NCBI RefSeq assembly: GCF_054482595.1
Contig: NZ_CM137008.1
DNA length: 64,000 bases
Direction: 5' to 3' (one strand)
In this document: one piece after another, positions 27,001 to 30,000 of the stretch
How positions within the stretch are numbered: the first letter of the stretch is position 1
Layout of the letters: each line of letters starts with the position of its first letter
Position numbers: made by a program

Positions 27001-30000
27001 AAAGCGGGCATGATGAACCCAAGCTATCCACTCAACTATATGGAAAAACCGCTGACGCGCCTGATGCTGGGCCGTTCCTGGTGGGATCTGAACATTAAGG
27101 TTGATGTGGAGAAGTATCCGGGAGCAGTATCGGAAGAGGGACAGAACGTTACTGAAACCATCAGCCTGTACTCGAATCCGACCAAATGGTTTGCGGGTAA
27201 CATGCAATCAACCGGCCTGTGGGCACCGGCTCAGAAAGAGGTCACCATTAAGTCCAATGCGAACGTTCCTGTGACCGTCACCGTGGCGCTGGCTGACGAC
27301 CTGACCGGACGTGAGAAGCATGAAGTTGCGCTGAACCGTCCGCCAAGAGTGACTAAAACGTACTCTCTGGACGCTAGCGGTACGGTGAAGTTCAAGGTGC
27401 CTTACGGTGGCCTGATTTATATCAAGAGCGACAGTAAAGAGGAGCAATCAGCTGAATTCACCTTTACCGGTGTAGTAAAAGCGCCGTTCTATAAAGATGG
27501 CGCATGGAAAAACGCTCCGAACTCCCCTGCGCCGCTGGGCGAGCTGGAATCAGACGCGTTCGTCTACACCACGCCGAAGAAGAACCTTGAGGCCAGCAAT
27601 TACAAGGGCGGTCTGAAACAATTCGCTGAGGAACTGGATACCTTTGCCAGCTCGATGAATGACTTCTATGGCCGTGATGGCGAAAACGGTAAGCACCGGA
27701 TGTTTACCTATAAAGCATTGACGGGACATAAACATCGTTTCGCTAACGATGTGCAGATCTCCATCGGTGATGCGCACTCTGGTTACCCGGTGATGAACAG
27801 CAGCTTCTCGCCGAACAGCACCACGCTGCCGACGACGCCGCTGAACGACTGGCTGATCTGGCATGAAGTCGGTCATAACGCCGCAGAAACGCCGTTGACT
27901 GTACCGGGTGCTACTGAAGTTGCGAACAACGTGCTGGCGCTGTACATGCAGGATCGTTATCTCGGCAAGATGAACCGTGTCGCTGACGATATTACCGTTG
28001 CGCCGGAATATCTGGAGGAGAGCAACGGTCAGGCATGGGCGCGTGGCGGTGCGGGTGATCGTCTGCTGATGTACGCGCAGCTGAAGGAGTGGGCTGAGAA
28101 GAACTTTGATATCAAGAAATGGTATCCAGAAGGTGAATTGCCTAAGTTCTACAGCGAGCGTGAAGGGATGAAAGGCTGGAACCTGTTCCAGTTGATGCAC
28201 CGTAAAGCACGCGGCGATGATGTTGGCAAAACCAAGTTTGGCGAAAGAAATTACTGTGCTGAATCCAACGGTAACGCTGCGGACACGCTGATGCTGTGTG
28301 CATCCTGGGTCGCTCAGACGGACCTTTCCGCATTCTTTAAGAAATGGAATCCGGGCGCGAATGCTTACCAGTTGCCGGGAGCGACAGAGATGAGCTTCGA
28401 GGGCGGTGTGAGCCAGTCGGCTTACAACACGCTGGCGGCGCTTGGTCTGCCGAAACCGCAGCAAGGGCCGGAAACCATTAATCAGGTTACCGAGCATAAG
28501 ATGTCAGCCGAGTAAGCCTGTATGCCGGATAAGGCGCTCGCGCCGCATCCGGCATGAAATAAGGCGCACCGGGTCAACACATATGCCCGATGCGCAAGCT
28601 TATCGGGCCTACAGAGAGGGAAAGCTGCGTTTATTTGCGTTGGCAGACACCTGTAGGCCGGATAAGGCGCTCGCGCCGCATCCGGCATGAAATAAGGCGC
28701 ACCGGGTCAACACATATGCCCGATGCGCAAGCTTATCGGGCCTACAGAGAGGGAAAGCTGCGTTTATTTGCGTTGGCAGACACCTGTAGGCCGGATAAGG
28801 CGCTCGCGCCGCATCCGGCATGAAATAAGGCGCATCGGGTTAACACATATGCCCGATGCGCCATCTTATCGGGTCTTCAGGGAAAGCCGCGATTACTTGC
28901 GTTGGCAGATACCTGTAGGCCGGATAAGGCGTTTTACGCCGCATCCGGCAAGTTACAACAAACAACCTTTAACCATGCTTTTTGATGTTTTTCAGCAATA
29001 CCCCGTGGCGATGCCCATACTGGCTACCGTCGGAGGATTGATCATCGGCAGTTTTTTGAATGTGGTGATTTGGCGTTACCCCATCATGCTGCGCCAACAA
29101 ATGGCGGAGTTTCATGGTGAAATGCCGAGTGCGCAGTCAAAAATAAGCCTTGCGCTACCGCGTTCGCACTGCCCACATTGTCAGCAGACCATCCGGATAC
29201 GTGACAATATTCCGCTGCTCTCCTGGCTGATGCTCAAAGGGCGCTGCCGTGATTGTCAGGCGAAAATCAGCAAGCGTTATCCGCTGGTGGAGTTATTGAC
29301 GGCACTCGCTTTTTTGCTGGCGAGCCTGGTGTGGCCGGAAAGTGGATGGGCGCTGGCGGTGATGATATTATCCGCCTGGCTGATTGCCGCGAGCATCATC
29401 GACCTCGATCACCAATGGCTGCCCGATGTTTTTACTCAGGGCGTATTGTGGACGGGACTAATTGCGGCATGGGCGCAGCAGAGCCCGCTCACGCTACAAG
29501 ATGCAGTCACCGGCGTCCTGGTGGGGTTTATCACTTTTTACTCTCTGCGCTGGATAGCCGGAATAGTTCTGCGTAAAGAAGCATTAGGCATGGGCGATGT
29601 ATTATTGTTCGCCGCTTTAGGTAGTTGGGTGGGACCGTTATCACTGCCCAATGTTGCTTTAATCGCCTCATGCTGCGGCCTGATATATGCCGTTATTACA
29701 AAAAGAGGATCAACCACACTGCCTTTTGGACCGTGTTTAAGTCTGGGCGGTATAGCAACACTTTATCTACAGGCATTGTTTTAATGATAACCACGTCATT
29801 ATCAAAGTGACATTTTAACTCTTATTAATAACCTTAGAGATTATTTACCATGTCGATAAAACAAATGCCAGGGAGGGTATTAATATCGCTATTGTTGAGC
29901 GTTACAGGATTATTAAGTGGCTGTGCCGGCCATAATGAAAATGCCAGTTTACTGGCGAAAAAACAGGCGCAAAATATCAGCCAAAACCTGCCGATTAAAT

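Follow-up and report, generated by a model that had tools for sequence, protein, structure and literature searches.

What is the repeated sequence that separates sslE from pppA, how did it come to be repeated, and does it matter to the genes on either side? The question arises in a stretch of 64,000 nucleotides of contig NZ_CM137008.1 (NCBI RefSeq assembly GCF_054482595.1), hereafter the window. There an earlier note, made from the sequence, had described a tandem array of repetitive extragenic palindromes (REPs) at 28517-28960, between the sslE stop codon and the start of pppA. Here, we argue that this array is a non-coding bacterial interspersed mosaic element (BIME) and that it arose as a 133-bp unit was multiplied in tandem within the sslE-pppA spacer. 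We put the probability of this reading, including the effects on the operon mRNA proposed below, at roughly 85%. It is an already known and well-understood kind of element.

Structure and class of the array

The spacer holds a single tandem array, in which Tandem Repeats Finder recognises 3.3 copies of a 133-bp period with 93% matches, 1% indels and a score of 733. The earlier note was right about the repeat and about its first base, but not about its end, the repeat stopping at 28950. The palindromic core to which it pointed is also there: GCCGGATAAGGCG(N2-8)CGCCGCATCCGGC occurs four times, against 0.00 expected in 100 shuffles. No second strong tandem repeat was found in the window, and a regular-expression scan of positions 1-64000 detected no REPs elsewhere, leaving this array as the sole REP cluster there.

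The units share one order: a y REP, a 29-nt head-to-head linker, a 29-nt z1-like inverted REP and a 40-nt tail-to-tail linker, the latter being 36 nt in unit 3. The whole array thus comprises seven palindromes in alternating orientation, four of y type and three z1-like and inverted (Table 1). Units 1 (28517-28649) and 2 (28650-28782) differ by a single base (99.2% identity). Unit 3, placed at 28783-28915 by the repeat search, has 129 nt and is about 89% identical to the other two; its ungapped identity to unit 1 is only 75% because of a 4-nt deletion. The stem of the first y REP begins 8 nt past the sslE TAA, and the pppA ATG lies 25 nt downstream of the last y REP. Strain XH990 is identical to the window over the sslE-pppA stretch.

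Table 1. Elements of the sslE-pppA spacer and its borders, in window coordinates
Feature	Position	Strand	Evidence or remark
sslE stop codon TAA	28513..28515	+	ORF 23935-28515; RefSeq sslE of XH990 has the same last base
Tandem array, 3.3 copies of the 133-bp BIME unit	28517..28950	.	Tandem Repeats Finder, repeat search, unit identities
y REP 1, 35 nt, guide GTAT instead of GTAG	28520..28554	+	RNA hairpin, -22.4 kcal/mol
z1-like REP a, 29 nt, + strand end ...GGGCCTAC	28584..28612	-	Hairpin, -13.5 kcal/mol
y REP 2, 35 nt, GTAG intact	28653..28687	+	Hairpin, -20.9 kcal/mol
z1-like REP b, 29 nt, enclosing the ATG of the spurious ORF (28723)	28717..28745	-
Spurious extension of pppA on its 5' side, 84 codons of repeat sequence	28723..28974	+
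y REP 3, 35 nt, GTAG intact	28786..28820	+
z1-like REP c, degenerate (...GGGTCTTC), CTAC lost	28850..28878	-	Weaker hairpin, -10.7 kcal/mol
y REP 4, 36 nt, loop TTTTA, final array element	28915..28950	+	Hairpin, -21.7 kcal/mol
True coding region of pppA (prepilin peptidase, 269 aa)	28975..29784	+	RefSeq in XH990 and K-12; Pfam A24_N_bact and Peptidase_A24

In length, GTAG and bulge these palindromes match the published E. coli definitions of y (35 nt) and z1 (29 nt) REPs, which include the GTAG tetranucleotide and an AA-GC bulge (PMC8266576). Three of the four y REPs follow the layout of GTAG, a 13-nt arm, a 4-5-nt loop, a second 13-nt arm and a final A, for a total of 35-36 nt. In their stem, GCCGGATAAGGCG pairs with CGCCGCATCCGGC apart from AA opposite GC, which forms an internal loop in the predicted hairpins. 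The z1-like REPs of units 1 and 2 read T-GCCCGATGCGC-AA-GCTTATCGGGC-CTAC (29 nt), with the same AA/GC mismatch in the stem. The guide tetranucleotide is damaged in two of the seven REPs, the first y and the third z1. REPs are also expected to be extragenic and present at many loci; the array lies between a stop and a start codon, and at megablast stringency its y part matches a median of five and up to 13 places per genome. The K-12 genome is reported to carry about 600 REP copies (PMC8266576).

REPs alternating with inverted REPs and joined by linkers, here in 3.3 tandem copies, make a BIME, and the literature separates three classes of them (PMC3333891). BIME-1 combines y and z1, occurs as a single copy and has a long, conserved linker in which a site for integration host factor (IHF) is frequent, BIME-2 combines y and z2 in tandem copies, and atypical BIMEs are multi-copy elements with other combinations. 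The array shares y and z1-length REPs with BIME-1 (RIB/RIP, IHF-binding, with the L linker), but the latter is single-copy and usually has an IHF site. With 3.3 copies, and with linkers in which the IHF consensus WATCAANNNNTTR was not found (the best matches have at least three mismatches), the array does not belong to this class. It shares tandem amplification and a variable copy number with the gyrase-binding BIME-2, but its second REP has the 29 nt of z1 and not the 37 nt of z2, and we rejected this class as well. By its y and z1 REPs, its multi-copy state and its lack of an IHF consensus, the array is an atypical BIME as judged from its sequence. It resembles the atypical BIMEs of the Bachellier/Gilson classes, as restated by Ton-Hoang et al. 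2012 (PMC3333891), in having tandem copies conserved at one locus, a number of copies that varies between strains and locus-specific linkers. Nothing essential sets it apart from them, save that its z1 variant has a compensated C-G pair, reading ATCGGGCCTAC and not the common ATCAGGCCTAC; most Z REPs have T-A at this place, ATCAGGCCTAC being the common form (PMC11208160). A further multi-REP array, REP325/naRNA4 (RF02564), shows weak similarity of sequence and structure to the sslE-pppA array. Membership in naRNA4 was rejected, as its seven matches score 28-37 bits for a gathering score of 59.5, and no Rfam family reaches its gathering threshold at the locus. A search of the literature for REPs at yghJ found no paper.

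Is any of this sequence translated? A mechanical list of open reading frames (ORFs) contains a 353-aa ORF at 28723-29784 that consists of pppA plus 84 codons, and further ORFs of 68-82 aa, on both strands, made solely of repeat. The earlier note considered such ORFs spurious, the extension of pppA among them, and our results agree. That the longer pppA forms an uninterrupted frame with an ATG in the window allele is what speaks for it. Yet, the extension is REP sequence in which every 133-bp unit shifts the frame, the unit length not being a multiple of three, and the in-frame sequence upstream of the pppA ATG varies by allele. In four of the twelve alleles that we read (E200086, Z0117EC0005, EC21 and E2348/69) a TAA stands three codons upstream of that ATG. 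The Pfam domain A24_N_bact begins only at residue 105 of the 353-aa ORF, and in every strain inspected RefSeq has a 269-aa pppA starting at the ATG equivalent to 28975, not to 28723. None of these strains has a RefSeq feature annotated inside the array. The comparison of alleles refutes the 353-aa protein, to which we give practically no chance of being real.

Copy number and history of the expansion

To what extent is the array shared by other E. coli? We surveyed 5,426 complete genomes and read the structure of the spacer in twelve alleles. Copy numbers were taken from record spans and E-value thresholds, BLAST coverage, which joins overlapping pieces, being unreliable. The earlier note had proposed a comparison of copy number across strains, and this reveals a variable-number repeat of 1.3 to 5.3 copies. 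K-12 MG1655 has a 197-bp spacer with y-z1-y (1.3 copies), a layout shared by E2348/69. We counted 2.3 copies in PapRG-04-4, 4.3 in 88COLEC and 5.3 in E200086 and Z0117EC0005, whose spacer measures 733 bp. At the other extreme, N-01, LD26-1, EC21 and JNEC-KY178 have spacers of 129-163 bp, owing to deletions that removed part of z1 and the distal y REP's left arm. None of the twelve alleles, decayed ones included, lacks the y REP that directly follows the sslE stop. The window allele is shared exactly by some strains, as 851 bp around the array are 100% identical in XH990, O157:H16 Santai and a dozen others.

Expansions are rare in the survey. Both flanks are present in 3,293 genomes, at least 80% of the inner unit is kept in 1,048, and the array match is long enough for at least about 1.6 units in 133. 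About 120 of these 133 have at least 2.3 copies; among 60 evenly spaced rows of this class, 39 have 2.3 copies, 10 have 3.3, five have 4.3-5.3 and six are of another type, to which we return with IS621 below. At least 3.3 copies are found in 31 genomes, 24 of the window type and seven of the 5.3-copy lineage.

The distribution of the unit within genomes indicates where it was amplified. The inner segment (linker, z1 and linker) has a median of one match per genome, at the sslE-pppA locus. Hence, the 133-bp unit was amplified in place, and we rejected the idea of a dispersed family because the inner part occurs at this locus only. A 59-bp match of 89.8% to the y-REP/linker part lies at 73974-74032 of NZ_CP159699.1, a 94.5-kb plasmid, and the collection contains four such plasmid places.

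In both expanded lineages the last unit is of a distinct type (B) and the amplified units are of another (A); unit 3 of the window and unit 5 of E200086 are 91.7% identical. As the type B terminal unit is common to both, a 2.3-copy state with one A and one B unit is older than both expansions. Unit 2 of the window is a hybrid whose head (GTAG) is that of unit 3 and whose body is that of unit 1. A 2.3-copy allele such as that of PapRG-04-4 would be expected to yield such a unit by one unequal exchange within its y-REP region, where 45 nt are identical. In the window lineage the type-A units share 99-100% identity, which indicates a recent event, as against 93-98% in the 5.3-copy lineage. The latter (E200086, Z0117EC0005) represents an independent expansion with units 85-98% identical, and some of its y REPs have an enlarged loop (GGCACTCG).

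In the 4.3-copy allele of 88COLEC (locus positions 400-991) GTAT is found in both of the first two units, which read T,T,G,G together with the next two. Only 6 nt separate the variant base from where the repeat homology begins on the left, and a single unequal crossover inside the repeat would thus yield T,G,G,G. This allele would therefore require gene conversion, or else that a unit delimited by the CT preceding GTAG was duplicated, in line with the cleavage model of the REP-associated transposase (TnpA-REP). More generally, the extra copies may have arisen by unequal recombination, slippage or TnpA-REP activity between repeats. Since the rest of the cluster is often decayed and expansions are rare, the expansion is probably close to neutral and not an adaptation.

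The z1-like REPs have a further property, as they carry a target of the insertion sequence IS621. The exact 11-nt sequence ATCGGGCCTAC is found at 28602-28612 (REP a) and 28735-28745 (REP b). It is the exact specificity of the target-binding loop in wild-type IS621 bridge RNA, the common natural target being ATCAGGCCTAC; in a published genome-wide assay IS621 hit only two exact-match sites (PMC11208160). The array sites have the features of natural targets: the ATCGGGCCTAC/ATCAGGCCTAC sequence, the CT core and the position in a REP tail. In strain 53 (NZ_CP048359.1) IS621 is inserted precisely at the array target. The insertion is bounded by locus positions 680-700 and 1960-1975, with junctions ATCGGGCCT/TGTAT... 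and ...ACAGTATCT/ACAG that both have CT, and the published bridge-RNA sequence stands just inside the left end. Five more genomes share the shortened array-match pattern of strain 53 and are candidates for such insertions. The supplementary tables of PMC11208160, searched by gene name for the sslE-pppA locus, gave no genuine match.

Possible effects on the operon mRNA

If the array is a BIME, what might it do? According to Yang et al. 2007, as relayed in PMC5012682, sslE and 13 downstream genes (pppA-gspS-gspC..M) form one polycistronic mRNA from the sslE promoter. Between 28300 and 29200 we found no sigma-70-like promoter and no intrinsic terminator (hairpin plus T run) on the + strand; on the - strand there are two weak terminator-like sites, within chance expectation. 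The reported mRNA and the lack of these signals imply that the array should be transcribed within the operon mRNA. Its folding, which the earlier note wished to see checked, is predicted to be strong: the RNA of the whole spacer folds at -216 kcal/mol, against -169.7 +/- 6.1 in shuffles (z = -7.5). The y hairpins are predicted at -21 to -22 kcal/mol and those of z1 at about -11 to -13.5 kcal/mol, but z1 may instead pair with the next y in a long stem of -47 to -48 kcal/mol.

By analogy with other REPs, the transcribed array would fold into a row of stable hairpins in the operon mRNA. These might block 3'-to-5' exonucleases, in which case the upstream sslE segment would outlive the downstream segment encoding the secretion machinery. 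The first REP, near the sslE stop, might also stall terminating ribosomes and lower the translation of sslE, and read-through into pppA may be attenuated. The most likely role, if these analogies hold, would be a post-transcriptional uncoupling of sslE from the secretion genes; protection of the sslE mRNA 3' end, translational damping and attenuation are each plausible. REPs and BIMEs have been described as stabilising mRNA, attenuating transcription and binding proteins (PMC8266576, PMC3333891), with which the earlier suggestion of a stabilising or transcript-partitioning element reasonably agrees. REPs less than 16 nt from a stop codon reduce translation of the upstream gene, as Liang et al. 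2015 are summarised in PMC12306157, and the first y stem, at 8 nt, falls within this distance.

The closest parallels are intercistronic stabilisers such as malE-malF in E. coli and hisJ-hisQ in Salmonella (see also Stern et al. 1988, as cited in PMC3184786), in which REPs likewise directly follow the first gene of the operon. As in nrdAB, a case of stop-proximal REPs (Liang et al. 2015, via PMC12306157), the first REP here is also within 15 nt of the stop. In all three an abundantly needed first gene precedes genes of lower need, as would be the case here. The sslE-pppA array differs in its seven hairpins, more than in any of these models.

These roles must be interpreted with care, and several observations weigh against them. 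Every functional step rests on analogy. Many lineages, with spacers of 129-163 bp, retain only half of the z1 REP and of the distal y REP; the full cluster is thus dispensable, and only about 2% of the genomes carry an expansion. This is better explained by a selfish or structural repeat in neutral drift than by a tuned regulator. The array is itself partly in decay, as the GTAT of the first y REP and the CTAC lost from the third z1 show. Furthermore, sslE is silenced by H-NS in many conditions, which limits any effect (PMC5012682).

One might then go further and regard the array as purely selfish or neutral repeat DNA, gaining and losing copies by recombination or the REP-associated transposase in an intergenic spot that tolerates it, with no effect on sslE or the secretion genes. 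The common decayed alleles, with only about 1,048 genomes retaining most of the inner unit, would fit this view, as would the 31 genomes with at least 3.3 copies, the near-identity of units 1 and 2 as the mark of a recent event, and the mutated guides. But neutrality does not readily account for the stop-proximal y REP, kept in all twelve alleles across divergent lineages; a transcribed run of -20 kcal/mol hairpins is unlikely to be inert for RNA decay, and published studies of REPs do show effects on mRNA stability, translation and attenuation. We hold a complete lack of effect to be possible, though on balance not probable.

The hairpins might alternatively act as a transcription stop that parts sslE from the secretion genes, with pppA-gsp transcribed from a separate promoter that lies within the array or beyond it. 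A link between BIMEs and transcription attenuation has been described (Espeli et al. 2001, as cited in PMC8266576 and PMC12306157), and nusA insertions altered the expression of an sslE reporter (PMC5012682), although this concerns a promoter fusion and not the spacer. The absence of a + strand hairpin with a T run and of a sigma-70-like promoter in 28300-29200, and the cotranscription mentioned above, make such a stop unlikely. We are equally doubtful that the array acts at the level of the DNA or nucleoid, by binding gyrase, Pol I, IHF or HU or by giving rise to HU-binding nucleoid-associated RNAs like those from REP325. Binding of gyrase, Pol I and IHF to BIMEs is reported (PMC3333891), and the naRNA4 matches, the best of 37 bits, point in the same direction. 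However, these matches are far under threshold and merely reflect shared REP sequence, the linkers lack an IHF consensus, and gyrase binding is documented for BIME-2, which the array is not. A locally amplified BIME that may uncouple sslE from the secretion genes is thus the reading that we retain.

Neighbouring features and implications

Some other features of the window deserve mention. The mechanical sslE ORF starts at a TTG at 23935 (1526 aa). Since RefSeq sslE has 1520 aa, the real start should be the ATG at 23953 (MNKKFKYKK..., lipobox LLAGC). Within sslE, a repeat of 30-bp period at 24100-24173 encodes a Pro/Glu/Thr-rich linker after the lipobox (PEPTPEPTPDPEPTPEP...). Upstream, on the - strand, 21485-21706 is a full-length match to the Rfam small RNA C0719 (299 bits), between the ORFs at 19259-21430 and 21785-23467, which by their position relative to sslE are probably glcB and glcA. 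Also on the - strand, 49625-49861 matches the Rfam IS102 RNA with 74.6 bits and stands immediately upstream of a minus-strand ORF of 973 aa (46760-49681).

The array has practical consequences whatever its function. It should be masked in annotation, which avoids both the 84-codon extension of pppA and the calling of the 68-82-aa repeat ORFs. The spacer, at 129 to 733 bp, provides a simple length marker separating E. coli lineages.

One might speculate that copy number is a heritable dial, in which every gain in hairpins, by 3'-end protection or attenuation, would further loosen the coupling between SslE, an abundant secreted substrate, and the low-level type II secretion machinery, while each added unit brings an IS621 target. 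We find this improbable. Were it true, the independent expansions in two lineages, to 3.3-4.3 and to 5.3 copies, would be adaptive. Each added unit would also be an extra perfect-match IS621 target, and polar insertions would come to concentrate more and more at the operon junction. And if copy number affects the ratio of SslE to its machinery, it would be relevant to work on SslE as a vaccine and on colonisation.

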